The notes beneath the pieces are model-generated. The model was not told where the DNA came from. It did no database searches and saw nothing but the letters and a program-made list of their open reading frames with translations. 64,000 bases of DNA. Origin: Squalus acanthias. Its lineage: Eukaryota. The first letter of the stretch is position 1. The number at the start of each line of letters is the position of its first letter. Location of the stretch: contig JASTWF010000499.1 of assembly GCA_030390025.1 (NCBI GenBank), positions 62,001 to 126,000 on the forward strand, written 5' to 3'. Shown here in pieces: positions 2,697-64,000 of this stretch. The position numbers and the translations under genes were made by a program.

Positions 2697-3960
2697 TTGA
2701 GGAAAAAGGAAGACATGGAATGGAATAGAATCCTTACAGGAAGCGGGGTGGGAGGAAGTGTAGTCCATGTAGCTGTGGGAGTCAGTAGGCTTATAGTATA
2801 TTGTTCCATTCTCCCAGTTTCTCCATCTCCGCCGCATCTGCTCTGACGATGCCACCTTCCATACAAGTGCTTCCTATATGTCTTCCTTTTTCCTCAACCG
2901 AGGATTCCCGTCTACTGTGGTTGACATTTCCTGCACTTCTGCTCTCACCCCTTCCCCTCCCTCCCAGAACCACAATAGAGTTCCCCTTGTCCTCACCTTT
3001 CACCCCACCAGCCTTTACATTCAATGGGTCATCCTCTGCCATTTCCACCACCTCCCGTGTGATCCCACCACCAAACGCATCTTCCCCTCCCCTCCCCTTT
3101 CAGCATTCCGAAGGGACCGCTCCCTCCGCGACATCCTGGTCCACTCCTCAATCACCCCAACACCCCTTCCGCTCCCCACGGCACATTCCCGTGCACGTGC
3201 AGGAGATGCAACACCTGCCCGTTTACCTCCTCCCTTCTCACTTTTCAGGGCCCCAAACACTCCTTCCAGGTGAAACAGCGATTTACTTGCACTTCTTGCA
3301 ATTTAGTATACTGTATTCGCTGCTCACGATGCGTCTCCTCTACAACGGGGAGACCAAACGCAGATTGGGTGACCGCTTTGCGGAACACCTCCGTTCAGTC
3401 CGTAAAGGTGACCCCGAGCTTCCAGTCGCCTGTCACTTTAATTCTCCGCTCCACTCCCACTCTGATCTCTCTGTCCTCGGCCTCTTACACTGTTCCAACG
3501 AAGCTCAACGTAAGCTCGAGGAACAGCACCTCATCTTTCGATTAGGCACTTTACAGCCTTCTGGACTCAACATCGAGTTCAACAATTTCAGATTATAGCC
3601 TCGGCCCCTTTATAAAAAATATTTTCCCTCACATGGCAGCTGTTGATGATTTCACCTCATCTAGAATCATCTTTTCTTTCTTAACTTGTCCAATTACCAT
3701 CTCCTTTTGCCTTGCACGATCATCCCTTTTGTCTTTTAATCTCTCCTGCCTTCCATCCTATCACAGACCTTCCCTTTTGTTCTTTCCTCCCCTCCTCCCT
3801 TTCCCTGCCCCTACACTTGCTTAAAAATTTGTTACATCTCTAACTTTTTCCAGTTCTGATGACGGGTCATCGACCTGAAACGTTAACTCTGTTTCTCTCT
3901 CCACAGATGCTGCCTGACATGCTGAGTATTTCCAGCATTTTCTGCTTTTATTTCTGATTT
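2697..3960 (+). mobile_element. Penelope-like element 3' part (RT thumb, GIY-YIG endonuclease, 3' UTR) with an inverted 5' segment
   Basis: ORFs give CTSCNLVYCIRCSRC...YNGETKRRLGDRFAEHLRSV...GLNIEF; 2716-2798 is upstream PLE sequence (YYKPTDSHSY) in inverted orientation. Confidence 0.9.
3852..3888 (+). ncRNA. Minimal hammerhead ribozyme in the PLE 3' region
   Basis: AGTT-CTGATGA-cgGGTCatcGACCt-GAAA-CGTT-AACT: conserved core, stem II GGTC/GACC, stem I AGTT/AACT, palindromic AACGTT stem III. Confidence 0.75.
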
Positions 3961-4400
3961 CCGCAGTATTTTGCTTTTGTGTTTGTGTGAGAAATTGTAT
4001 GTTTACTCATTAACCTGTCTGCAGTTTCTGTTTTTGGGAAACTGGGTTGGAGCGGATTTGAATGGATATCCCTAAAAGAAACAAAGACTTTACATCGTTA
4101 AACTAAAGACTGGAAAAAAGGAAATTCATACGATTATGGGTAAAACGTGGAGACGGGGGACGAGAAGAGACAGGGAGGCACGGAAAGGGCATTGGAAGAA
4201 AGAAGTTCGTCAAGGCGGCACAGATGCAGTTGCAATGTATATTTTTTATCATGAATGCGAGGTGAAATCACCAACTAATATAATTGCGCCAGGGGACCTC
4301 TCCTCTTGTTGCTGAGCATTGTGACTTGTCGCTGATTTAAGAATCTCCCTGTGACTCTCACTGTGGAGGCGGAATTATCGCTGCTGGTTATCGGGGTGAG

Positions 4401-4415
4401 AGCGCCCTCTGGTGA
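4401..4415 (-). promoter_or_regulatory. CTCF-binding motif beyond the V1 RSS
   Basis: Reverse complement TCACCAGAGGGCGCT matches the CTCF core CCASYAGRKGGCRC. Confidence 0.65.
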
Positions 4416-4439
4416 GAACTAACTGGAACTCTCAGTGCG

Positions 4440-4479
4440 GATTTTTGTACGGGATCCGCTATATCTCTGCAACAGTGTG
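4440..4479 (-). other. RSS of V1 (24-nt spacer)
   Basis: Heptamer CACACTG 4479-4473, spacer 4472-4449, nonamer ACAAAAATC 4448-4440. Confidence 0.85.
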
Positions 4480-4982
4480 GGGCTCATGGCACAGAAATAC
4501 ACGGCGGTGTCGGAAATCAGGGCGTTGCTGATCGTTAGCTCGGTAATCTTGGTAGTTTTATTAAACGTAGAAGAGAATTGGTCAGTGAAGTTTCAGTTTA
4601 CTCTCCCTGCAATAATATAAACCAAGTACTGTGGAGGCTGCCCGGGGTGCTGACTGTACCAGAACACATAAGAGTTAGTGTAGCTTGTTTTCAAAGTGCA
4701 GGTTTGTGTGACATTACTTTCCTCTTCAACCATCATTTCAGGGACCGGCTGTTCCACTGTTTCTTGGTGGCTCCATTCTAACATAAAATAATAGTCATAG
4801 TCACCATCATCATCATCATCATCATCATCTCAATCAACATAATCATCATCATCACCATCATCATTTCACCAATAATAACACCTGGGTTACAGCAGTCAGG
4901 GGGAGAATGGATTTTTACTGGGAAGTAAATACTTACTGAGAAGTGATATAATGATCAGGAGTTGTGTGAGACAGTTCCGCAT
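4480..4982 (-). pseudogene. TRAV: TCR alpha/delta V segment V1, pseudogene with one in-frame TGA
   Basis: Leader exon 4982-4937 MRNCLTQLLIIISLL|gtaagt; V exon 4777-4480 WSHQETVEQ...QTCTL...FWYSQHPGQPPQY...GRVN*NFTDQFSS...DTAVYFCAMSP; TGA at 4595-4593; RSS follows. Confidence 0.9.
4795..4875. repeat. (CAT)n microsatellite in the V1 intron
   Basis: Visible catcatcat run. Confidence 0.9.
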
Positions 4983-5628
4983 AATGCTCCCTGAGTCTGT
5001 AACTCTGCTGTCCGGGAAATCCTCTGTCGGAGCAGAAATACAGATCGCCGCCCCACTGCACTGCTGAACCAACCAATGCCAAACAGGGAACGGCGGCAGC
5101 AATCTCTCCAATAACACAGGGCAGGCGAGGCGGGTCAGAGCGAGAGCAGCAAACGGAAGCTGTGGGCGGGGCTGGCGCGGGCAGTGTTGTCACACGAAGG
5201 ATCCACCTGTGAGGAACTGAATTCAATAATAATGGCCCCTTCGGAAATTATGTAACTCTGCCTCTGTAGAAGGGCTGCGTTACTTTCACATTCGTCACAA
5301 ATTCGGGCAAGCAGGCTCGCGATAGGAATTGCAGAATTATTATATTATTCAATAGTTAAACAAAATATTCGGCAGCGATGTGCGTTAAAACCAGGGGCTG
5401 AAACTAGCGGAGAGAAGTAGAACAAAATGGCAACTGAACCAAATGTTCTGGAGAAGCACATCTCGTTTCCACTCAACTAACTTCTGAAATTATGAAACTG
5501 TAAATGAATGTAAAACATTAATAAGCATAAATGTGAGCTCAAAAGCAATTTCACGTTAATTTATAATAGAAAAAGTCAGTCAGTATTGGTTGATGTACGG
5601 TGACCGACTGTGGGAATCCGCGCTCTGT

Positions 5629-5646
5629 CAGCGCCACCTGCTGGCC
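5629..5646 (-). promoter_or_regulatory. CTCF-binding motif beyond the V2 RSS
   Basis: Reverse complement GGCCAGCAGGTGGCGCTG is a near-consensus CTCF site. Confidence 0.75.
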
Positions 5647-5686
5647 GAGTTTAAAGTATCTCCTTTGAGCTGATCTCACAGATCAC

Positions 5687-5725
5687 GGTTACTGTACGAG
5701 GTGTCCAGAGACCCTTCTCACTGTG
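5687..5725 (-). other. 23-RSS of V2
   Basis: CACAGTG 5725-5719, 23-nt spacer, ACAGTAACC 5695-5687. Confidence 0.85.
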
Positions 5726-6653
5726 GGCCTCAGTGCACAGTAGTACACGGCGCTGTCAGAAAGCTGCAGCTCAGTCAAGTTGCAAACACTGGTAGTTTTA
5801 GACTTTTCCAGAATGACAGAGAAAAGACCGTTATCTTCGTCCTTTCCAAAGGAATGTGCCTGAATTACGAAAGTGGGAACCTTGTTCTGGTTCTGACGGT
5901 AAATCTGCAGGGAATAAATCGAATCTGACGTTGAATAGTTACAATTAATGCTCATCGAGGTTCCTTCCAGATATTGGGCTTCTGTTGGCCACTGATCGAC
6001 GGAGTCTCCAGAACTCAGTCCTGCAGAAAACATTCCTGGTTACCAATGGAAACAGAGTGAAGAGTAGATCACACGTTTCTCTGTCTTCAAGAATATATCT
6101 GTCCATCTCTCTGTGTGTACACAGGGAGACAAAGAGACAGGAAGAGATAGTATCGCTTTAATGGTTAGATAAAGATAGATGGACAGGTTGATAAACAAAC
6201 AGACAGACAGAAAGGCAGAAAGATAGGCAGAGGGAAAGACATAGATACAGAGGGACCAACAGAAAAGCAGTCAGATAGACAGATAGACAGACAGTCAGAG
6301 AGACAGACAGAGAAAGACAGACAGAGAGTGAGACAGACAGGCAGACAGACAGAAAATTAGACAGACAGGTGGATAGACATAGAGATCGATGAATAGAAGA
6401 GAGGGAGGGAGACCGAGAGAGAGAGAGACAAAGAGAGACAGAGAGACAGAACGAGAGAGAGAAACAAAGAGAGAGAGAGGGAGAGGGGGACTGAGAGACA
6501 GAGAGAGAGAGAACTAGGCAGACCTAGGGGTCGCTGACTAGCAGACAGTGAAGTCAATAGTGGAATGGACAAACAGACGCAGCTGTGTAAATAAATAATC
6601 TAACCAAATAACAACGTTGTTAGGCCCCAAACAAACAAAAACCCAAACTCCAT
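5726..6653 (-). CDS. TRAV: TCR alpha/delta V segment V2; open frame but conserved Trp41 replaced by Ile
   Basis: Leader 6653-6605 MEFGFLFVWGLTTLLF-G|gttaga (phase 1); acceptor ttttctgcag; V exon 6020-5726 GDSVDQ...INCNYS...LQIYRQ...DSAVYYCALRP. Confidence 0.85.
6110..6535. repeat. GA/GACA-rich microsatellite expanding the V2 intron
   Basis: gacaga/gagaga runs. Confidence 0.85.
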
Positions 6654-7164
6654 AATGTCCGCAGTCTCCCCACACTGGGAGCCCGCACTTCACCCGGTGC
6701 CTCCTCTTAGTTGCAGCTCTCGGAATGAAGGGGAGAATTTGAAATGTTCCGTCAGCACACGGAGTCCCGTCATTTTCTGAATCAAACCAAGAGCCTGGTT
6801 TCAATGAGCTGCCGCTGATCATTGTCGCTGTCTGTGTTCATCATCACTGCCTGCGGCCCCGGCACACAGGGTCCCGGACATCTGATCATCCGATCCCGGG
6901 AATGAGTAAAGATTCTGTCTGACCGTTACTGGCCTCACACACAATAACCTGGACACATCCCAGAACTGCTCGGAAAGGCGGAAAAAACCTTCGGACTGAA
7001 GATTATTCTTCCAAAAAAAATCTCATTTTAACCGTGTTTTCAAACCGACGCTCAATCGATTTTACGGTTTGCTTGTTGATAGAACATGTTCCATTTGATA
7101 GAAATGAAAATCAGACACGATGTTGTGGCAATGTCACAACCTCGGAGTTTAAACTCGAGCCTTT

Positions 7165-7625
7165 TTGTCTGTGTGTTTTTCTGTCTGTATTTTTGAGTGT
7201 GAATGTATGTGTCTGTATGTGTGGTTAAGTGCTTGTGTCTGTGTGTGTTTATCTGTCTGTCTCTGTTTATCTGTGCATGTTTGTCTGTGTGTCGGTATGT
7301 GTGATTCTCTGTGGTTGTGTTTGCAGTGCTCGAAGTGAGGCTTGTACAGGACACAGGAGGGCGCATTCTGATCATTTGTTAAAGATCTTTCATCTTAAGC
7401 AACACAGCTGAATATACATAAGTATCCTCCACAACATATCAACTAGTTGTGTGCATCTCGGTTTATGTCGTGTGTGTATGTGTGTGTGTGTGAAGGGTGT
7501 CTGTGTCTCTATATATATGGTGTCTGTGCGTGTGTGAGTGTGTATATGAAGGGTGTGTGTGTGTTTATGTGTGTGTGTATGTCTATATGTGTATGGCTGT
7601 CTGTGCATGTGTGTATGTGTATATG
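7165..7625. repeat. TG-rich microsatellites between the divergent V2 and V3 promoters
   Basis: gtgt/gtat/gtct runs. Confidence 0.85.
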
Positions 7626-7674
7626 GATATCTATTTGTCCTTGTTGCGAATGCGCTATGCCATGCTTGTACTAC

Positions 7675-7795
7675 CCACAGGAGGGCGCTCTCTGATCACT
7701 TTATAAAGATGATGATCCCAACATAAAGGAAGTGGCTGTTTAGAGCTATACAAATGGGCGGGGAGAAGAAATCCAAACCGATCTGATGAGATCAC
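7675..7795 (+). promoter_or_regulatory. Putative V3 promoter with CTCF-like site, ETS site and GC box
   Basis: CCACAGGAGGGCGCTC 7675-7690, AGGAAGTG ~7727, GGGCGGGG ~7756, about 100-200 nt upstream of ATG 7878. Confidence 0.5.
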
Positions 7796-7877
7796 CGCGC
7801 TGTTTCAGTTCATCCCATTCCAGGCCCGGTATAGGCAGTGATCACAGTCTCTTGTTTCTGGAGTTCAGACTGGAACC

Positions 7878-8349
7878 ATGGAGGTGAAACTCTGCGTGAC
7901 TCTGGTTATTGTCCTGATCACAGGTCGGTGATATTGGAACCATCCTATAACATTCTCAAATCCCCATCTACATCTCTGGGTTATTGTTCTCTTTCTGTTA
8001 CTCCGTCTAACCCGGTGTGTGTCCACTGTTTATTTTCAGAGATGAGTAACGGAGACTCGGTGTCCCAGTCAGAACAAGGAGTCGGATCAGAAGAGGGTGC
8101 AGATTCAACAATAACCTGCAGTTATTCTGTATCGGGTTCAGCTACAAGCTATGGCCTGTTCTGGTATCGGCAGTTTCCCCACCAAGCCCCTCAGTATCTG
8201 CTCAGAGCCGATAGTTATGGGAATAACGAGACGGCTCCGGGCTTTGAACACTTCAGCGGGAATCTCAACCGGACACAAGGCACTTTTCACTTATCCATGA
8301 AAGGCTTGAAGATCGCAGACAGCGCCGTGTATTACTGTGCCCTGAGACC
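7878..8349 (+). CDS. TRAV: TCR alpha/delta V segment V3, intact
   Basis: Leader 7878-7923 MEVKLCVTLVIVLIT-G|gtcggt; V exon 8040-8349 GDSVSQ...ITCSYS...LFWYRQFPHQAPQYL...DSAVYYCALRP; Cys23, Trp41 and Cys104 present. Confidence 0.93.
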
Positions 8350-8388
8350 CACAGTGAATAAGGGACCCTCTATCCTCATACAAAAACA
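8350..8388 (+). other. 23-RSS of V3
   Basis: CACAGTG 8350-8356, 23-nt spacer, ACAAAAACA 8380-8388. Confidence 0.93.
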
Positions 8389-9143
8389 TGACACAGGTCG
8401 GCAACAAGGGTGGGCTCCGGGAGAATACCAGGGATTGAATCCCAGAGAGTTTGTCGAGGAAATAAATGTGAAAATACAGCCTGATCCGAGCGGTTTTCTC
8501 TCGTTAAATTCATTGCTGTCAGTGTTGGGATAAATGACGTCTCGCTATCATTTTAATGCAGCGTCAAATTGAGACATTTCCAGCTCCCTGTTAGCTCAGA
8601 CATGCAGATCTCTGGGATGAATAACAGGATCAATCTGTACAAGTAGATGTCCTGGATATGGTGCATATCTGCCAAGTGACATCTTTCAAAAGCGATCTAA
8701 TCTCAGAGTCGGCCTCGGGGGCGTCACACTTCCAAACTTCTGGGATTCCAGTGGTAAAACATAGTGACTGACTGAAATCAGCACTTTACTGGAACAAGTT
8801 GAGCCTCAGTGGTATCACATCCCGGTGGGACTACTTAACATGCCCGCGTGGCTTTAGGACTGTAACTATTAATGATGTTGATGGATTGGAGGGTATTCTT
8901 TAATGCCAGGGCTTGAGACTAATTTGGAATTATTTTACTTTTCACCTTAATTAGAGAGAGATCTACCTATCTATATATAGAGACATTGAGTTCCACAGAA
9001 AGAGAGACAAAGCGAGAAAGAGACAGAAAGACTGACAAAGAGACACAGGGCAAGAGAGTGAGACAGGGAGAAAGACACACAGACACTGACAGGAAAGGAA
9101 AGTGTTTGGAGAGAGCCAGGAGTAATTGGTCCTCAACTAACAC

Positions 9144-9187
9144 TGATTGGTCCACAGCTGACGTCAGTTCTGTATGACCAGCCAATC
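9144..9187 (+). promoter_or_regulatory. Putative V4 promoter: CRE overlapping an E-box, flanked by CCAAT boxes
   Basis: GATTGG 9145-9150, CAGCTG 9155-9160, TGACGTCA 9159-9166, GCCAAT 9181-9186; CRE-type motifs are typical of TCR V promoters. Confidence 0.65.
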
Positions 9188-9317
9188 CGGGCCCTGAGAA
9201 ACGCCCCTCGGTTTCCAAATAGGTGAAGCCTGCCGCTGAGTTGGGTTTACTGTTTAGTATCAGACTACAACGGTTCAAAACATCCTGCTATTTTCTGTCG
9301 AACTCTAACCAAATACT

Positions 9318-9755
9318 ATGTGCTCCCTATGTTCCTTACTGATAATAATGGTCGTGCTGTCCGGTGAGTCTATGTTTACAGGGTCAGTGTGTGTTCCATG
9401 GGTTATATTTACTCCAGACCTTTTGTCACATTCTTTATTTTGTTACAGGAACGAGTGGCAAAGACTCAGTGTCCCAGCATCCTTCGGAGTTAAGGGTTCA
9501 GGAAGGACAGACCATAATACTGAACTGCAGTTACTCCACATCCGAGAGCTTTCCCTATCTCTTCTGGTACATCCAATACCCCGGGGAAGCTCCGAGATAT
9601 TTACTGAAGAGATACGGCAAGGGGCAGGGGGATAAGTCTCCAGATTTCCCAGACCGGTTCTCTGCTGATTTGGAACAAGACAAGAAAGCGGTTCCTTTAA
9701 TTGTCTCCGGGGCTCTTGTCTCTGACTCCGCCGTGTATTTCTGTGCGCTGAGCCC
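9318..9755 (+). CDS. TRAV: TCR alpha/delta V segment V4, intact
   Basis: Leader 9318-9363 MCSLCSLLIIMVVLS-G|gtgagt; V exon 9449-9755 KDSVSQ...LNCSYS...LFWYIQYPGEAPRYL...DSAVYFCALSP. Confidence 0.93.
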
Positions 9756-9794
9756 CACACTGTTACAGGGGCGCAGTCAGTCCGTACAAAAACC
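9756..9794 (+). other. 23-RSS of V4
   Basis: CACACTG 9756-9762, 23-nt spacer, consensus nonamer ACAAAAACC 9786-9794. Confidence 0.93.
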
Positions 9795-10084
9795 AGCAAA
9801 GGACTCTCACTCCCTCTCACTGAATCAGATCTGGGATCTGGATTGTGATAATACAACAGAACCAAACTATAAAAATTAAACGATGGATAAATAAATCGGT
9901 GAATAGATAACTAAGTAGATAGACCGGTAGAGATATGAATACACAGTCTCCCTCTCTTAACCTCCTCTCCCAATGATCCCTTCCTCTTTGTTTGAAAGTA
10001 TCCATCCCATGGCGACAAAACCCAGCCCGTGTGAATTGCGGCTGCGGCGTCTGCGAGTGTAAAACGCGATGTGTTTCACTGCTC

Positions 10085-26478: not shown

Positions 26479-28224
26479 GACATATTACTGCTCTGGACAA
26501 TGCGCCTGTTAGATAGACAGACAGATGATAGATAGAGGGATAGATAGATATTGATATAAGTAAAGATATTTATTTGCGTCTGTGAGAGGATGCAACCATT
26601 GTTTTTACTTAGGAGCACGTTTATTCTTGTGAATAGCTGTCAGCAACTGCGTGTAATTTCTAATTGATCTGGTATTTTGTCGGTAATATTGTGTTGAAAG
26701 GATGGGGTGAATCTTGGAACAATCTCCCAGCGATGAACTGGGATTGAGGGACAGGACTAAAGGTGAGCAATCGTCCACTGAACTTTGCACCACTTAGTGG
26801 CAAACTCTGTGTGTTAAAGTTTACTAATTCACACTGGTGTTGTCCTGTGCCGATTGCTCACAGTTTTTAATGTTAAGGATTGTTTTTCCTGCAGTATTTT
26901 CTATTGAGCTTCCACGGGACCCGCTGATTGTGCGACAGAGCCTGGAACCGTGACCTCACAGCACCGCCGGATGGGCGGCCGCAGGGTCCTAATGTCCACC
27001 GAGTTCACTAACTCACATCTGGTTAAGAGGAACAACTGAAAAGATCACAGACAAAGTGTTTGCTTTAGATATGTATGATGTGTGTGTACAAACACATTTT
27101 TGTTAATGTTTGCAAGTGCATTCCACAAAAAAATTATTATGCTCACCAGTTATTGTTCTCCATTTTCTTTTCTTTTATTCAACATCTAATTGCCGATGGT
27201 TTAATATCTTTAACATTTGTTGATAACACATTCTCTGAGTGCTCTTGTTTAGAAAGTGATGTCACAATGACCAGTCCGTTACCATGGTGAGCCTGTCTGT
27301 CCGCAGTATTCAGTTGGGAAGGGAATGAAATCACACCGAGGATAATGAGCAGCTCCCCACCAGTCTCTGTGGTTTATTGTCCAGTGATCACCTCAGCATC
27401 ACACAGAATCTCCTGATAATTACCTCGAGTGTGTGATAATTGGTGCAAGTGATGGTAAAATGGAACTGTACCTATACCTGACATGAGGTTAATAAACCTG
27501 TAATTATCTCACTTATTATTACCCCGTTTGGAAAGGAATGTAACTCTTGCTACTCTCCAGAGAATTCCACACTATTTCTATTTCCACAATCTTCTATTTC
27601 TTGACAAATACCTTCACTGTTTCACCCCAACGTCTTCCAGTATTTTTGGGCACATACTACCAGGGCCTGCTGATTCCCCCATATTCAGGGCCTTTACCCT
27701 TTAAACGTGGAGATGCATTTTTTATTTCACCACTACAGGGAATGAGCAGAGTGTTTATCGCAAGCCTGGGATTTTACTTCCATTAGAGATATGAAATTGG
27801 CCATGGGGGTTGGGGGAATGTAAGAGGTGGAATCTCGTTCTCCGCCCGGTATCCAACATGCCCAATATTCAGAGCTATTGAAGTCTGTGGGGTGGAATAA
27901 TGGGCGGGGGCGTATCACGGGCGGTCGATGCCTCACCGCCTGTTCTGTGTCCCCGGCCCACCAGGTCTGATTTCAGGCCATTCTGATCAGGTGACATCGG
28001 GAATTCCGAGTGGCAGAGGGTCAGAGGTCACACTGACGTTGCTATGGCGACCAAGTGACACTGATGACTCTGCATTGTTTTGGTGATGACGTCACGAGGT
28101 GATTATGTGTTGCTCACGAGAAGTCAAAGTGGGAAAACTGTAATGCAGTATACAGGAACTTACACTGATACTAACATGTTGCTGGGGTAGTGGAGTCACA
28201 CTGTGCCGTCAAAAACTATCAGGT

Positions 28225-39984: not shown

Positions 39985-40480
39985 CAGTAACCCGGTGGAC
40001 ATTAGGACCCTGCGGCCGCTCATCCGGCGGTGCTGTGAGGTCACGGTTCCAGGCTCTGTCACACAATCAGTGGAAGCTCAATAGAAAATACTGCAGGAAA
40101 ACAATCCTTAACATTAAAAACTGTGAGCAATCGGCACAGGACAACACCAGTGTGAATTAGTAAACTTTAACACACAGAGTTTGCCACTAAGTGGTGCAAA
40201 GTTCAGTGCACTATTGCTCACCTTTAGTCCTGTCCCTCAATCCCAGTTCATCTCTGGGAGATTGTTCCAAGATTCACCCCATCCTTTCAACACAAATATT
40301 ACCGACAAAATACCCGATCAATTAGAAATTACACACAGCTTCTCATAGTTATTCACAAGAATAAACCTGCTTCTCAGTAAAAAATGATTTCTTCCTTCCA
40401 CCCACGCAAATACATATCTTTACTTATATCAATATCTATCTATTCCTCTATCTATCATCTGACTGTCTATCTAACAGACG
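39985..40480 (-). repeat. Inverted partial copy (C) of the duplication unit
   Basis: Reverse complement of ~26500-27005. Confidence 0.9.
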
Positions 40481-43209: not shown

Positions 43210-43227
43210 TGTCGCCACCTGCTGGTG
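43210..43227 (-). promoter_or_regulatory. CTCF-binding motif
   Basis: Reverse complement CACCAGCAGGTGGCGACA. Confidence 0.6.
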
Positions 43228-43531
43228 ATAAACAGCTACTGCAGGCGCCAGAGTTTCCTTTTAAACATGATTCAGAATTCCACAGACAGCAACTTGCACT
43301 GACCCAGTGACGCTCACCCAGAGGAGTTTCTCAGATCAAACCACAAGAGGGCCAAGGTGAATGAAGGGAGGAAGGACCAAAATTACTGCTTTAAATTCGG
43401 AGGAGCTTTTCGTGGGAAGGTGGGAAGTTATTTTGGAAGAAAGTGGCAATGAAGAAGGTAAAGGCAACTGTAAAACCCACAAACCACCTGGAATGGTGGT
43501 GGAGGAGGAACAGCTGCATCTGGAACGGTCG

Positions 43532-56490: not shown

Positions 56491-58969
56491 CCAGCAGTTA
56501 CTTTTCTTCAGTACTGTTCTCATTATCACTAAACTACCCTCCTGCTGTTAATTTTGTTATTTCTTATAGTTTCACAATTATAGGTATAAACATCACACAT
56601 TATAATATAATCTATTCTATTACTCACTCTGGTTTAAGCTTATATTGTGGTTAATAACAGACACACCCTGTTCTTCTCCCTGATCTGATTACAGATTCCA
56701 ACCAGTCGATTCAGTGAATGGAATGTCTTATCAGTGTTGCCATGGTGACCTGTCTGCAGTGAAACGCCTGTTGAGTTTCTAACTCAGACTAAACTTCTCT
56801 TTCCCACAATACACATTATATCAGACATTTGATCTCGATGTATTTTAGCCATGTTATGTTAATATCTCTAAAATCTACAGGGAGATCAGATACACAAATC
56901 TTTAAAAGTTGGAGGACAAGTTTATAAAGTGGTTTAAAAATGTTACCCGAGGTTTTTTATAAATGGGGCGTAGAAAACAAAACCATCGGTTCGGCTGCAG
57001 TTAGAATAAGTTTTGGGAATCTTACACTAGGAAGGATGTCGGGGCCACAGAGAGGCTGCAGAATAAATTCACTGAGGTTATACCACGGATGAGAGGCTTT
57101 AGTTATCAGAGAATCAGAGAACGATACAGCACAAAAGGTGGCCATTCGGCCCATCATGCTTGTGCCAGCTCTTTGGGAGAGCTATCCAATTAGTCCCACT
57201 CCCTTGCTCTTTCCCCATATCCCGGTAAATGTTTTCCCTTCAAATATTTATCCAATTCCCTTTTGAAAGTTACTCTTGAATCTGCTTCCTCCACCCTTTC
57301 AGGCAGTGCATTTCAGATCATAACTCGCTGGGTAAAGAAATGTTTCCTCATGATGACCTGTCTGCAGTGAAGCGCCTGTTTGAGTTTCTAACTGAGGCGA
57401 ACTTCTCTTTCCCAGGAGGAGAGACGAGAGAAACTGGGGCACTTCTCATTAGAACAAAGCAGGGTGAGAGGAGATGTGAGCGAGGTGTTTAAACTTGATC
57501 AACGACACCGACCAAAATATCAGAGACACTCCCTGTCCTTCAGGACCTGTGTCCAGGGGAGAAGCTGATGGGTTTATCAGATCATCTTTGGGTTAAATGT
57601 TGTGCTTGTGGAGCTGAGCCCCTAGTGTCAGCATCAAACACTCTCCAGTCGGGTACAGCACGGGTTAGATACAGAGTAAACCCATCAGCCGCTCCCCGAC
57701 ACAGATACCGAGGGACAGGGAGTGTCCGGGACAATGACATTTCTCACTCAATAAGGTATAAATTGATCCTGTACCTCTCCCCATGGGGCGAATCCTGCTC
57801 CTGTTTCCCTTCCTGTAACAGCACTGAGCTAAACCCAGCCCATAATGAGCAGGGCTCAGGGAGGTTGGTTGCTAGGAGCTGCAGTGATGTCATAAAGCAG
57901 GGCCATTCAGCCCAGCTGGTCGTCTCCTTGTCCCTTTAAAGGTGGAGAGCGGGGACACCCTGTCTCCAAACACATCCCACCTGTTCATACTGAGAATCCC
58001 TGGGGAAGGCCCAAGGCCCAGAGTGTGGAACACAACCAAGGGGGAAAGAGGAGGAGAGAAGGGGAGGAAAATCAAGGACTCGGGACTGAGGGACACCAAG
58101 CTTCAGTTTAGAGCCTGTAGACTTCAGGAGGGGAAGAGTGAGTTCAGTAATTTTCGGATCCAGGGAGAGAACAAGGAGCAGATGGGGAGACTGGTGTGGA
58201 TTCCAGCACAGTGAGGATGTAGGGGGAGGGAGATTGTGTCGGGCCGTGTATTAGGGGTGTAGGAGGGACAAGAGAGGAAAGGTCAGAGGAGCAATTACTG
58301 CAGCATTGCCCATAAATAGTGAGAGAGAGAGAAGGTGGGGGTTCGAGTGGACCAGGGACAGTCTGTTAAACTCGCTGTTTGCTGTGACCAGTTTTCCTTC
58401 AGTTAAAAATGGCCTCCTGTAGCCCAGTGACACAAACAGCCCATTAAACTCCACCAATGGCCTTTGGTCTGGTGAGGTCTCCCTTTGTGAAACATCGGCT
58501 GTTGTTAAAGCTTTTCATTCTGACACGCTCACACTGAGAAATCAGCTGCAGAACTGCCGACACCATCAGCTTTAAGGAGACGTTTCCCTTTGGAGATCAG
58601 ATTGTCCATTGAGTTTGATGAAATTGATGTTAAAGTAACAAGGCTGCTTTGCCCCGTGACAATAACAGATTATCAGAATATTTCCCATAGGTTAAAATCC
58701 AATATGACAGGAACTCACTGCCCTGGATGGTTGAAGTGGACCCGATGATATAATAGAATTTTCTGTCCTGTCAGACTTGGACATCTTGTAGATCCATCTT
58801 TTAGAAAGTTGTGGGAAACAAAGCTCATTTATTTGACATTGATACAGATTAAACTCCAGCCCAGTTATAGGGGTTATTAACATCAGCTGAAACAAACCCC
58901 AACTGTCAGAATGAACATGGTTCAGTCCTGGATGTGATTAACAGCAGCAATAACAACAGAATCCAACCC

Positions 58970-59400
58970 CTACAGACACTTGTGAACTCGCTGGTGTGTC
59001 CGCAGGTTGGATGAATGAGTGAATCCCTTCCCACACACGGAGCAGGTGAACGGCCTCTCCCCAGTGTGAATGCGTCGATCAATTTCCAGCTCAGACAGGT
59101 AATTGAATTCCTTCCCGCAGTCCCAACATTTCCACGGTTTCTCCGTGGTGCGGGTGTCCTTGTGTCTCTCCAGGTTGGATGATCAGTTGAAGCCTCATCC
59201 ACACACAGAACACGTGTACGGTTTCTCCCCGCTGTGAACGGTGCGGTGTTTTTTCAGGCTGTGTAACTGGTTAAAGCTCTTTCCACAGTCAGTGCACTGG
59301 AACACTCTCACTCGGGTGTGTGTGTCTCAGTGCTTTTCCAGTCACACTGATGTTTGAAATCTTTTCCCACAGACAGAACAGACAAACATTTCTCCTTCCA
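58970..59400 (-). pseudogene. Truncated C2H2 zinc-finger paralog
   Basis: Near-identical to 60530-60780; fingers CWDC (His lost) and CSVC...HQRVH; two in-frame TGAs upstream. Confidence 0.8.
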
Positions 59401-59942
59401 GATTCAGAGGCCAATGATACTCAGCCTGTTACTATAACTGGACTTGTCTCCATTCCCGTGCCGAGGGGATTGCTGTACCAGACGGGAGGGGCAACATTTG
59501 GGGACTCTCGATTCTCCACCAATTCCCATTCCCCTTCTTTCTGGTGGATAATGGAGGTGCCACTGTGTGTAATGTGCAAGTCAGTAAGAGTTGTCAGCGA
59601 GGATTAATCAGCACTTTCTAATTGGAGATGTTAATCATTGGACTTTTCAGACACTGAATTGCACCAAAGATTAATATCGGAGTGAAGTAAAATATTTAAT
59701 TTTTTTGTAAACTAATTTCTGATGAGAATCCCTGAATTAAGGGGAAAGATCACAGACAGCGGTTCTTAAACGAACACTGCAGCCCCGAGATCACAATCAG
59801 CTATATATCCAGAATATTAAACTCCAGCCAAGTTATAGGGTTATTAACATCAGCAGAAACAAACCCCAACTGTCAGAATAAACATGGTTCAGTCCTGGAT
59901 GTGATTAACAGCAGCAATAACAGCAGAATCCAACCCCTGCAG

Positions 59943-60533
59943 TCACTTGTGAACTCGCTGGTGTCTCAGCAGGTGGGATGAACGAGCGAATCCCTTCCCA
60001 CACACGGAGCAGGTGAACGGCCTCTCCCTAGTGTGAATTCTCTGGTGTGTCAGCAGTGTGGATGACTGAGTGAATCCCTTCCCACACACGGAGCAGGTGA
60101 ACGGCCTCTCCCCAGTGTGAACTCGCTGGTGTGTCAGCAGGTTGGATGATTTCGTGAATCCCTTCCCACACACGGAGCAGGTGAATGGCCTCTCTCCAGT
60201 GTGAAATCGCTGGTGTGCCAGCAGGTTGGATGATTTAGCGAAACCCTTCCCACACATGGAGCAGGTGAACGGCCTTTCCCCAGTGTGAGTGTGTTGGTGT
60301 ACAATGAGATTGGATGACTGCCTGAACCTCTTCCCACAGTGAGAGCAACTGAATGGTTTATCGTCAGTGTGAACTCGCTGGTGTCTCAGTAGGTGGGATG
60401 AATTAGTGAATCCCTTCCCACACATGGAGCAGGTGAACGGCCTCTCCCCGGTGTGACTGTAGCGATGAGTTTTCAGCTCAGACGGGCAATTGAATCCCTT
60501 CCCACAGTCCCCACATTTCCACGGTTTCTCCGT
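59943..60533 (-). CDS. C2H2 Kruppel-type zinc-finger protein, 7 fingers; start uncertain (ACG 60533 or ATG 60425)
   Basis: TGERPF linkers, CxxC...HxxxH x7; exon acceptor ttttacag gives exon start 60897; upstream degenerate fingers contain TGA. Confidence 0.8.
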
Positions 60534-61256
60534 GGTGCGGGTGTCATTGTGTCTCTCCAGGTTGTACGATCAGTTGAAGCCTCGTCCACACACAGAACAC
60601 GTGTACAGTTTGTCCTTGCTGTGAACGGTGCAATGTTTTTTCAGGCTGTGTAACTGGTTAAAGCTCTTTCCACAGTCAGTGCACTGGAACACTCTCACTC
60701 GGGTGTGTGTGTCTCGGTGCTTTTCCAGTCACACTGATGTTTGAAATCTTTTCCCACAGACAGAACAGGCAAACATTTCTCCTTACACATTCAAAGGTCG
60801 ATGATATTCAGGTCCTGATGAATGGAGTGACTCTGTCAGATCTTGTTGTGATGTTTGGTTTGAGTTTCCTGTCTGTAAATCCTCCCCTTCTAATACCCTG
60901 TAAAAGGAGTTTACAAAAGTCATCACTGTAAGTACAGGATAGAAATTGAGAACAGACAATTCTAGTTTCTATGGAACATTCTTTCCTCTCTTGTTCCCCC
61001 AAAGCTGTAAATCCCCGTCCCACACACTCCCTCCACCCTGTGCTGAAATCCAAACCCATCGCACCATCTTCAACATTTCTTTCCTCCACTCCCAGTTTTC
61101 TCCCTCCCTCTACTGTGGTTGGGTTCAGTTCCACACCCGCTGTGTGCAGAGTGAGAATAAAATCAATGAGTCAATGATTTTCTCTCCTGGTCACTGGGAC
61201 CCTGAAGCCCCGCCCACTCTTTGTTCCTGTACCAAAATGGCCGTACATGCGCGTAT

Positions 61257-61725
61257 GGGGTCGGTAGCATGGTGGTAATGTCACTGGACTAGTAATCCAG
61301 AGGCCTGGACTAATGATCCAGAGACGTGAGTTCAAATCCCACCACGGCAGCTGGGGAATTTAAATTCAGTTAATTCAATTGATCTGGAACAAAAAGCTAA
61401 TATCAGTAATGGTGACCATCAAACTATCGGATTGTAATATAAACTCATCTGGTTCACTAATGTCCTTTAGGGAAGGAAATCTGCTGTCCTTTCCCCGTCT
61501 GGCTTATTGGTGACTCCAGAGCCACAGCAATGTGGTTGACTCTTAACTGCCCTCTGAAATGGCCCAGCGAGTCACTCAGTTGTCACAAACCGCTACAACC
61601 TTCACCACACGGACTGCAGCGGTTCAAGAAGGCGGCTCACCACCACCTTCTCCACGGCAACTAGGGATGGGCAATAAATGCCAGCCTTGCCAGCGACGCC
61701 CACATCCCAGAAACAAATAAAAAAA
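61257..61725 (+). mobile_element. tRNA-derived SINE sharing head and tail with the 43532/47326 LINE family
   Basis: A box ~61265, B box 61328-61339; tail matches 48163-48290. Confidence 0.85.
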
Positions 61726-62480
61726 TCCCGCCCTGCCCAAGATGGCGGCCAGTGACACCACTGACCCGGGCGGCCGGGCCTGTCACCGCGGGGCGAACAC
61801 GGGGCCTGAGGCCTACACCAGGTGTTTATGGAGCTTCCCAGCCCACCCGCGGGTCCAATTCCACCTTCCGTCCCCGGGAGAAAGCCTCAAAGCCGCCGCC
61901 CCGCAGCTGGATGAACCCCGGCCCCGGGGGCTGTTATTCGGGTCTAAGGCCGCAGCCCCTTTATTATAATGATGTGGAGATGCCGGCGTTGGACTGGGGT
62001 GGACAAAAATGAGAAGTCGCACAACACCAGGTTATAGTCCAACAGATTTATTTAATTTTACAAGCTTTCGGAGCAGTTCGCTCCTTCGTCAGGTAAGTTT
62101 AGCAGTGAGAGAATCTCCCAGAATTCACAATTTAAACACAGACAAAATATATTCAAATCTTTCCCTACATCATTTATTATAAAGCCGGCCTTGTGTTTTA
62201 TTCTCCCACCGCGCCCGCATCTTCCTCCAGGCGGTCCAGGAACCCGGCTCTACTGCGCCTGCGCACTGGGGCCCCGTCACTCAGATAGGGCGTATTCCCA
62301 ACCGCGCGGCATTCTGGGTACGCACTGCCGCCATTGAGAATGTGAAGCAATTCCTGATAATTGATTCTTTATTACGCTTCAGCGGCCTGTCCTCTAAATA
62401 ATACTCTGTGTCTTGGGTGAATGGAGCGGTTGAGGAACAGAAGAGGCGCATTTGGACCAGGAAGTGAGGCGAGGAAAACA
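61726..62480. promoter_or_regulatory. CpG-island promoter (ZNF-cluster type)
   Basis: YY1 CAAGATGGCGGC 61738-61749 and GCCGCCATT ~62327; NRF1 TGCGCCTGCGCA ~62253; ETS CAGGAAGTG ~62458. Confidence 0.7.
61970..62172 (-). mobile_element. Solo PLE terminal unit with hammerhead (62058-62096), flanked by a 10-bp TSD
   Basis: TTTATTATAA at 61960-61969 and 62173-62182; internal sequence matches 10085-10250. Confidence 0.85.
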
Positions 62481-62802
62481 TTTTTTTTATTCTTTCATGG
62501 GATGTGGGCGTCACTGGCAAGGCCAGCATTTATTGCCCATCCCTAATTGCCCTTGAGAAGGTGGTGGTGAGCCGCCTTCTTGAACCGCTGCAGTCCGTGT
62601 GGTGAAGGTCCTCCCACAATGCTGTTCGGGAGGGAGTTCCAGGATTTTGACCCAGCAACAATGAAGGAACAGCGATATACTTCCAAGTCAGGATGGTGTG
62701 TGACTTGATGGGGATGGTGTTCCCATGCACCTGCTGCCCTTGTCCTTCTAGGTGGAAGAGGTCGCGGGTTTGGGAGGTGCTGCTGAAGAAGCCTTGGTGA
62801 GT
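62481..62802 (-). mobile_element. LINE 3' end (same family as 47326-48290)
   Basis: SKSWNSLPNSIVG...RFKKAAHHHLLKGN; poly-T. Confidence 0.85.
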
Positions 62803-63204
62803 TATATATTAAAAAATAACCTGGCCTTTGACCTCTGCACCACGATGACATCACAATCACTATTGCGAGCGGGCACTTTAGGGATCAGTGATAGACGTGA
62901 GGACTGTGGTTAGGGTGATACAGTCAGGGGTTGGGGTTAGGGATTACGTTAATGATTCGGGTTAGGATCTTACGGTTAGGCTACCAAGGCTAGGAGAGGC
63001 ACTCTGGAAGACATGGGGAACTGGGACTTGTCCATGAGGGTAACCAAATTTATGAGAACTTAAAAATTCTAGAGTAAGACAGGAGAAAAGGCCCAAAAAT
63101 GGAATAATCGGTAGTAGGAAATCCATTAGTCTCCTCTTATCATGGAAAACCCAAGGAATTGACACACTGTTTAAAACAAAGCTGATTTATTTGGCATATA
63201 TCCA

Positions 63205-63400
63205 GAATCAACATCACTAAAACAGATTATCTGTCCATTATCACATTGCTGTTTGTGGGAGCTTGCTGTGTCCAAATTGGCTGCCGCATTTCCTGCATTA
63301 CAACAGTGATTACACTTCAAAAAAAAAAGTATTTAATTGGCTGTAAAGCGCTTTGGGACGTTCGGTGGTCGTGAAAGGCGCTATATAAATGTAAGTCTTT
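63205..63400 (+). mobile_element. DeuSINE-like 3' fragment
   Basis: AAAGCGCTTTGGGACG...AAAGGCGCTATATAAATGTAAGT. Confidence 0.7.
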
Positions 63401-63464
63401 TCTTTTAATATTAAATTCCACCCCAGTTAGAAGGGTTATTAACACCAGCAGAGTGAACATGGTT

Positions 63465-64000
63465 CAGTCCTGGATGTGATTAACAGCAGCAAAAACAGCA
63501 GAATCCAACCTCTGCTGTCGCACGTGAACTCGCTGGTGTGCCAGCAGGTTGGATGACTGGGAGAATTCCTTCACACACATGGAGCAGATGAATGGCCTCC
63601 CCCTCGTGTGAACACACTGGTGTGCCATAAGGTTGGATGAGCGCCTGAACCTCTTCCCGCAGTGAGAGCAACTAAATGGTCTCTCATCAGTGTGAACTCG
63701 CTGGTGTTTAATCAGTCCCGCTGAGCTTTTAAATCTGTTCCCACATTCAGAGCATTAAAATGGTCTGTCATCAGTGTGAACTCGCTGGTGTTTAATCAGT
63801 CCCTCTGAGCTTTTAAATCTGTTCCCACATTCAGAGCATTAAAATGGTCTCTCATCAGTGTGAACTCGCTGGTGTTTAATCAGACTCACAGAGCGTTTAA
63901 AGCTTTTCCCGCAGACCAAGCATTTCAAAGGTCTCTCCCCAGTGTGAACTCGCTGGTGTCTCACCAGCTCTGCCGAGCGTTTAAAGCTGTTCCCACATTC
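63465..64000 (-). pseudogene. 3' part of a C2H2 zinc-finger gene with two in-frame TAA stops (runs off the window end)
   Basis: Fingers with [10 protein letters not shown] linkers; PF*CSEC at 63841-63839 and 63757-63755. Confidence 0.8.

Follow-up and report, generated by a model that had tools for sequence, protein, structure and literature searches.

Control of V segment choice over long distances has been worked out almost only in the mouse, and the locus analyzed here raises the question of whether CTCF is coupled to the RSS of TCR V segments in a shark as well. RSS-associated CTCF sites lie 17–19 nt past the nonamer in mouse VH segments and 19 or 48 nt past it in human ones (Ciccone 2019, PMC6746451). 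In both species they follow the V tree or family, with a fixed spacing and in a single orientation (PMC6746451; Bolland 2016, PMC4914699), and deletion of the VH5-2 CBE lowered rearrangement 50-fold (Liang 2023, PMC10293834). A sequence-only reading of a stretch of 64,000 nucleotides from Squalus acanthias, hereafter the window, had proposed a similar layout for two TCR V segments. We examined this proposal for all four V segments of the window, for related sequences in other organisms and for V flanks of ray-finned fishes.

Pfam V-set matches identified four V segments, all of them within 4.4–9.8 kb of the window, and tblastn across the window revealed no fifth. No J-like segment, D or C was found by scans of the window. 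By scans, Pfam and tblastn, the 54 kb to the right of the V cluster contain no V, D, J or C, with the intervals 28.9–39.6 and 45–55.6 kb examined by script only. Besides the V segments, the window holds repeats and C2H2 zinc-finger genes at 59–64 kb; these genes lie on the minus strand (58900–64000) and probably mark the end of the V cluster.

Two of the segments, V1 and V2, are read from the minus strand, and the other two, V3 and V4, from the plus strand. The leader exon of V1, as read from the sequence, spans 4937–4982, with its ATG at 4982 and a GTAAGT donor, and the V exon spans 4480–4779. V1 is a pseudogene here, with an in-frame TGA at 4593–4595. The V2 exon (5726–6020) has an open frame in which Ile replaces the conserved Trp41, and its probable leader exon (6605–6653) was chosen as the best among three ATG..GT candidates. 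V3 (7878–8388) consists of a leader at 7878–7923, an exon at 8040–8349 and a near-consensus 23-RSS at 8350–8388, and V4 (9318–9794) of a leader at 9318–9363, an exon at 9449–9755 and a near-consensus 23-RSS at 9756–9794; both appear intact. V2 and V3 are arranged head to head, with start codons about 1.2 kb apart (6653–7878). The V4 promoter displays a TGACGTCA box between flanking CCAAT boxes (9146–9187).

The top protein match of V4 was from Chiloscyllium punctatum (62%), followed by TCR alpha V segments of bony fishes. The closest solved single-domain relatives of V2 were TRAV1-type (MAIT/GEM) alpha chains, with no V2 homologue found in a word-based protein search, and V1 matched alpha/delta chains as well. 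These matches identify the segments as TCR alpha/delta-type V of a cartilaginous fish. A leader, a V-set exon and a 23-RSS were found together with TRAV/TRDV as nearest relatives, the exceptions being the stop codon and 24-nt spacer of V1 and the missing Trp41 of V2. Judged by sequence, the four segments are thus of the combined TCR alpha/delta type.

Scanning the window with a CTCF matrix reconstructed after JASPAR MA0139.1, whose counts underlie all bit scores given here, yielded 23 matches at p<1e-4, as compared to 12.8 expected. The four best were located at 5629–5647 on the minus strand (25.2 bits), 43210–43228 on the minus strand (20.6 bits), 4400–4418 on the minus strand (16.2 bits) and 7672–7690 on the plus strand (14.0 bits). 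The best and the third best lie directly behind an RSS. The predicted motif behind the V2 RSS (5629–5647, p 4e-10, against a maximum score of 27.4 bits) begins 39 nt past the nonamer, and the one behind the V1 RSS (4400–4418, p 1.5e-6) begins 21 nt past it. The sequence-only reading had located these sites at 40 and 24 nt; their placement beyond the nonamer was borne out, but the distances had been counted from inside the motif. As it had also stated, each motif is on the sense strand of its own V (n=2). The V2 motif contains an E-box, CAGGTG, and is also situated about 650 nt upstream of the V1 ATG. For V3 and V4, no CTCF site was found within 120 nt of the nonamer (best scores 2.7 and -7.9 bits), so that the matrix scan places a site within 60 nt behind two of the four V segments of the window.

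The placement is unlikely to be due to chance. Dinucleotide shuffling of the 79-nt flanks, repeated 20,000 times, gave the motif score in no case for V2 and in one case for V1. Four random 60-nt intervals caught two sites of at least 16 bits with a frequency of 2e-5 in the whole window and of 4.7e-4 when restricted to 3900–10100, the width of 60 nt having been picked post hoc, after the data were seen. V1 and V2 are only 27% identical (25 of 92 aligned residues), and outside the motif their flanks show no alignment, which argues for two sites rather than one that was copied; a single duplicated CTCF site was rejected because the flanks cannot be aligned. We also considered GGGGGCGC-like stretches within the RSS spacers as CTCF sites and rejected them, as the V4 spacer was not among the matches.

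The other two of the four best motifs are located elsewhere. The one at 7672–7690 lies 187 nt upstream of the V3 ATG. It was correctly described as promoter-side; its orientation is opposite to that of the V1 and V2 motifs on the chromosome, as claimed, but relative to its own V it points forward. A degenerate duplicate of this motif (7348–7366, plus strand, 8.6 bits) is part of a 150-nt local duplication. The motif at 43210–43228 is isolated and is preceded upstream by a TGCAG-type stretch, as in the extended CTCF motif. The motifs at 5629 (minus) and 7672 (plus) are divergent, and those at 7672 (plus) and 43210 (minus) are convergent around V3 and V4.

The RSSs of the four segments differ in quality. 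The V1 RSS (4440–4479, minus strand) has the heptamer CACACTG, a non-canonical 24-nt spacer and the nonamer ACAAAAATC; the spacer measures 22 nt if an alternative heptamer is used. The V2 RSS (5687–5725, minus strand) combines CACAGTG and a 23-nt spacer with the nonamer ACAGTAACC, in which the A-tract is broken. Both V segments that carry a motif thus have a non-consensus RSS and both that lack one have a near-consensus RSS (n=4), hinting, from four segments only, that an RSS-side CTCF element may offset a weak RSS.

Parts of 4250–6060 were present in twenty runs with nine organism labels, one run being unlabelled. None of the 23 runs listed could be recognized as ChIP or lymphocyte data, and no RNA run was among them. 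Four of these runs were used, each from a different organism (B, D, H and I), and alignment at a likeness of at least 80% gave 372, 829, 395 and 607 contigs. These numbers show that V1 and V2 are multicopy families. In the four runs, the bin with the V1 motif had depths of 466, 6332, 379 and 377, as compared to 43, 220, 2 and 29 at 4250–4310, the first bin, which lies at the edge of the stretch. Expressed as ratios, the depth at the V1 motif was 0.9–4.2 times the median of the V1 exon and 11–174 times that of a bin lying 100 nt farther away. The V2 motif bin had depths of 83, 2705, 172 and 56, as compared to 17, 466, 14 and 12 at 5409–5469; its ratios were 0.7–2.3 to the exon median and 2.6–12 to the next non-coding trough. 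Depth at the V2 motif went with that of the V2 exon rather than with the connection to the V1 promoter. As a measure of copy number, contig depth is poor, and its decay away from an exon is expected for any duplicated unit. In X18 (records 9 and 10) and X6 (record 22), individual contigs extend from the exon across the RSS into the motif. The motif-bearing flanks of V1 and V2 are thus covered in four other organism labels, in terms of coverage rather than of motifs read copy by copy.

Differences within the motifs, among the 40 listed of 832, were found at 4417 and 5641 only. The change at 4417 occurred in 8, 34, 13 and 31 contigs (86–100% of depth) and raises the V1 motif score to 17.6 bits; that at 5641 occurred in 13, 25, 10 and 8 contigs (72–100% of depth) and raises the V2 score to 25.8 bits. 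A comparison of the motifs with the spacers between RSS and motif likewise draws on these 40 listed differences. No common indel in the V1 spacer was seen among the 12 listed of 66 indel rows, suggesting that the odd V1 spacing may be a property of the whole family. The V1 stop codon (row 4595) is a sense codon in some relatives. Variation around the motifs was also observed. Some V2-like contigs diverge from the RSS onwards and continue into different flanks (record 6 of X14, record 16 of X18), and in X6 and in X8 a single contig is missing the 5' half of the V1 motif. The deepest-covered non-coding stretch across the four aligned runs together was 5043–5225 (minus strand), the promoter region of the V1 family, which is a candidate for a conserved TCR V promoter element.

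As an outgroup we searched for V flanks using a pattern of V end plus RSS that is blind to CTCF and requires a near-consensus RSS; CTCF sites tied to weak RSSs would therefore be missed. The pattern gave 64 matches in metagenome contigs and none in viral contigs. Of the metagenome loci, 39 translate as V, resulting in 34 distinct flanks, and the other 25 were dropped as non-V. Of 22 TRAV-type loci that were compared, 21 had a ray-finned fish as best match. No chondrichthyan-like V was found among the pattern loci, which probably represent a small number of fish species. Forward sites of at least 12 bits within 60 nt were found in none of 18 distinct TRAV/TRDV flanks (11 rough families), none of 5 TRBV flanks and one of 11 IGHV flanks. 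For background, none of 253 windows reached 16 bits and three reached 12 bits. The difference between two of four shark segments and none of the 18 fish TRAV/TRDV flanks gives a Fisher p=0.026, calculated from rows that are not independent.

The single IGHV case is a percomorph segment, 86% identical to Amphiprion (L019:601–700, plus strand), in which a forward CTCF motif of 17.9 bits lies 20 nt beyond the nonamer, a distance close to the mouse VH spacing. In the fish TRAV loci, forward sites were located 215–567 nt downstream of the nonamer or, upstream of it, at 612 nt, and are thus promoter-side with respect to the next V. Such CTCF-like forward motifs between V segments, of 10.7–18.1 bits, were observed in eight ray-finned-fish TRAV loci (L015, L020, L025, L032, L037, L044, L054 and L056) and resemble the arrangement at mouse Tcra. 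Two fish TRBV loci, L048 and L061, have a forward CTCF-like motif in common, at distances of 12 and 42 nt from the nonamer on its far side; with 7 bits, these matches were rejected as too weak for RSS-side CTCF sites.

How close is the shark arrangement to those already described? Like the IGHV clans II/III of mouse and human, V1 and V2 have a strong motif less than 50 nt past the nonamer of a 23-RSS, in one orientation relative to the V, and the element is present in some V families, absent in others, and excised on rearrangement. Unlike in those clans, the carriers are TCR alpha/delta V segments of a cartilaginous fish, and the element is known here from its motif only. The spacing is not fixed either: the motif cores of V1 and V2 lie at 22 and 40 nt, as compared to 17–19 nt in mouse and 19 or 48 nt in human, and differ from each other. 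Compared at a limit of two mismatches, the V2 core has two to the mouse and three to the human VH core, and the V1 core five and three, respectively, the shark core being nearer to the generic CTCF consensus than to the mouse VH site.

With regard to receptor class, the shark segments are like mouse Tcra/Tcrd, and the promoter-side site of V3 fits the Tcra pattern. Loguercio 2018 (PMC5859386) lists mouse Tcra CTCF sites either as intergenic or as lying upstream of promoters, and none as RSS-adjacent. This agrees with the sequence-only reading, which held these sites to be mostly promoter-side, and differs from the two TRAV-type families described here, which have their motif on the RSS side. 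The same reading had given RSS-adjacent sites as established for D-proximal mouse VH segments. Such sites are known from mouse and human VH (PMC6746451), and Table 2 of PMC5859386 includes two mouse Trbv segments with CTCF near the RSS. The RSS-side arrangement is thus not confined to IgH. At mouse Tcrb, a single V-proximal CBE drives looping and recombination of Trbv1, and the V-CBE loops there are reported to serve diffusion-based synapsis and not RAG scanning (Allyn 2024, PMC10772921). As to the clade, TAD borders of the little skate carry oriented CTCF motifs matching MA0139.1, with loop extrusion acting genome-wide (Marletaz 2023, PMC10115646). Cartilaginous fishes thus have the CTCF machinery, with the same motif and orientation code, as seen in fin tissue and at TADs rather than at antigen-receptor loci.

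The motifs behind V1 and V2 are best read as putative family-specific RSS-associated CTCF elements, a TCR and shark variant of the mammalian VH arrangement. They probably work like RSS-associated CBEs, while being neither proven members of that class nor proven homologues. The mechanism of the mouse elements was reportedly addressed by Jain in 2018. Applied to the shark locus, motifs of the V1 and V2 families would bind CTCF in thymocytes, and CTCF positioned just past the RSS would, as in mouse, stall cohesin and hold the V near a recombination centre on the J side. The RSS-side sites would face the J/C end, and stalling would promote V-to-(D)J joining as for mouse RSS-associated CBEs. RAG may find the V either through linear scanning or, once a loop has formed, through diffusion. 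As synapsis at Tcrb can proceed by diffusion, an arrest of RAG scanning, as had been suggested, is only one option; for V3 and V4, inverted relative to V1 and V2, use of that same J would require diffusion. The motif would thereby likely favor the choice of V1 and V2 families when receptor genes are assembled, much as it does in antibody genes of mammals. Taken jointly, that the RSS-side motifs of two TCR V families bind CTCF, stall cohesin and raise V–J contact is the explanation we favor, with somewhat better than even confidence. It draws on the motif scores and chance tests, on the unrelated flanks of V1 and V2, on the depths in relatives, and on the precedent of the mouse and human VH sites, the VH5-2 deletion, the skate TAD motifs and the percomorph IGHV segment. 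It is weakened by the pseudogene state of V1, the missing Trp41 of V2, the opposite direction of V3 and V4, the variable spacing and the lack of RSS-side sites in the fish TRAV/TRDV and TRBV flanks.

A rather unlikely alternative, although one that we take seriously, is that the sites bind CTCF as part of the general architecture of the locus, either insulating or anchoring the promoter of the neighboring V or marking the edge of the locus as a divergent pair of boundary sites together with the V3 site. The proximity of the V2 site to the V1 promoter in a tightly packed cluster is consistent with this, as are the divergent and convergent motif pairs, the stretch without V, D, J or C to the right with its terminal zinc-finger genes, and one contig (X6, record 20) that joins the V2 RSS and motif to the promoter side of V1. 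Promoter-side sites are also the rule at mouse Tcra (PMC5859386) and at fish TRAV loci. However, two unrelated V segments each have a site no more than 40 nt from the nonamer, the depth of the V2 motif drops 2.6–12-fold towards the V1 promoter while tracking the V2 exon, and multicopy families cannot all occupy the edge of a locus.

Quite improbable, in our view, is that CTCF-like sequence arose beside each ancestral V and was copied as a passenger of the duplication unit, with no role in recombination. Any duplication unit would produce the observed decay in depth, V1 is dead here and variants without half of its motif exist. This explanation requires, however, two independent chance placements (2e-5 to 5e-4), and it does not account for near-maximal scores being kept in all four other organism labels or for listed in-motif changes that go towards the consensus. 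E-boxes act at TCR V RSSs. The V2 element could mainly serve to open the RSS through binding of an E-protein (E2A/HEB), given that CAGGTG is preserved by the 5641 change and recurs in the fish IGHV segment L019; this we regard as very improbable, since the V1 motif has no E-box and a box of 6 bp cannot explain a 25-bit match over 19 bp.

The favored reading, in which the elements act as RSS-side CTCF sites, bears on the age of the arrangement. Shark Ig genes form small clusters with no need for a long-range search (see also PMC2191167). The RSS-side motif of shark TCR V families allows one to ask whether CTCF–RAG coupling came first at TCR loci and whether such elements offset weak RSSs, and it offers a cheap marker, readable from genomes, for dating the coupling of CTCF and cohesin to RAG. 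The sequence-only reading had taken the layout to mean that control of V choice by loop extrusion dates to the origin of jawed vertebrates. In favor of this are a placement beyond chance, orientation with the V and retention within families. Against it are the differing spacings and the absence from the 18 fish TRAV flanks; together with the Trbv and Tcrb observations, these leave the dating a hypothesis. A simple ancestral reading is further weakened because CTCF loop extrusion occurs genome-wide in skates anyway. It is conceivable, though doubtful, that RSS-coupled CTCF is an ancestral jawed-vertebrate design, in which sites that stall cohesin, together with weak RSSs, shaped V choice early on at the TCR alpha/delta loci of cartilaginous fishes. 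Some IGHV families of bony fishes and mammals would have kept such sites at about 20 nt, and bony-vertebrate TRAV would have lost them or moved them to promoters.

RSS-side CTCF is already known from mammalian IGHV and two mouse Trbv segments; what is new is its occurrence as a motif at shark TCR V segments. Within the open-licence literature, we found no report of RSS-side CTCF in any shark or bony-fish locus. CTCF is absent from the main text of Giorgetti 2023 (PMC10322711), as is flank sequence from the 11 of its 19 supplements that were searched, and bioRxiv 10.64898/2026.10.19.759930 contains no antigen-receptor passage.

Two observations concern the repeats to the right of the V cluster. 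A retroelement fragment at 20243–20763 is adjoined by its own inverted copy at 20763–21160, as determined by eye, with weak CTCF matches mirrored at 20384 and 21003. The inverted pair (20243–21160) is possibly an assembly artefact or a fold-back duplication. In addition, a non-coding block is present in three copies, at 11280–11940, 26780–27490 and, inverted, at about 39990–40470. This block adjoins satellite arrays with units of 22 nt and about 65 nt, and two of its copies contain a CTCF-like site of 11.3 bits.
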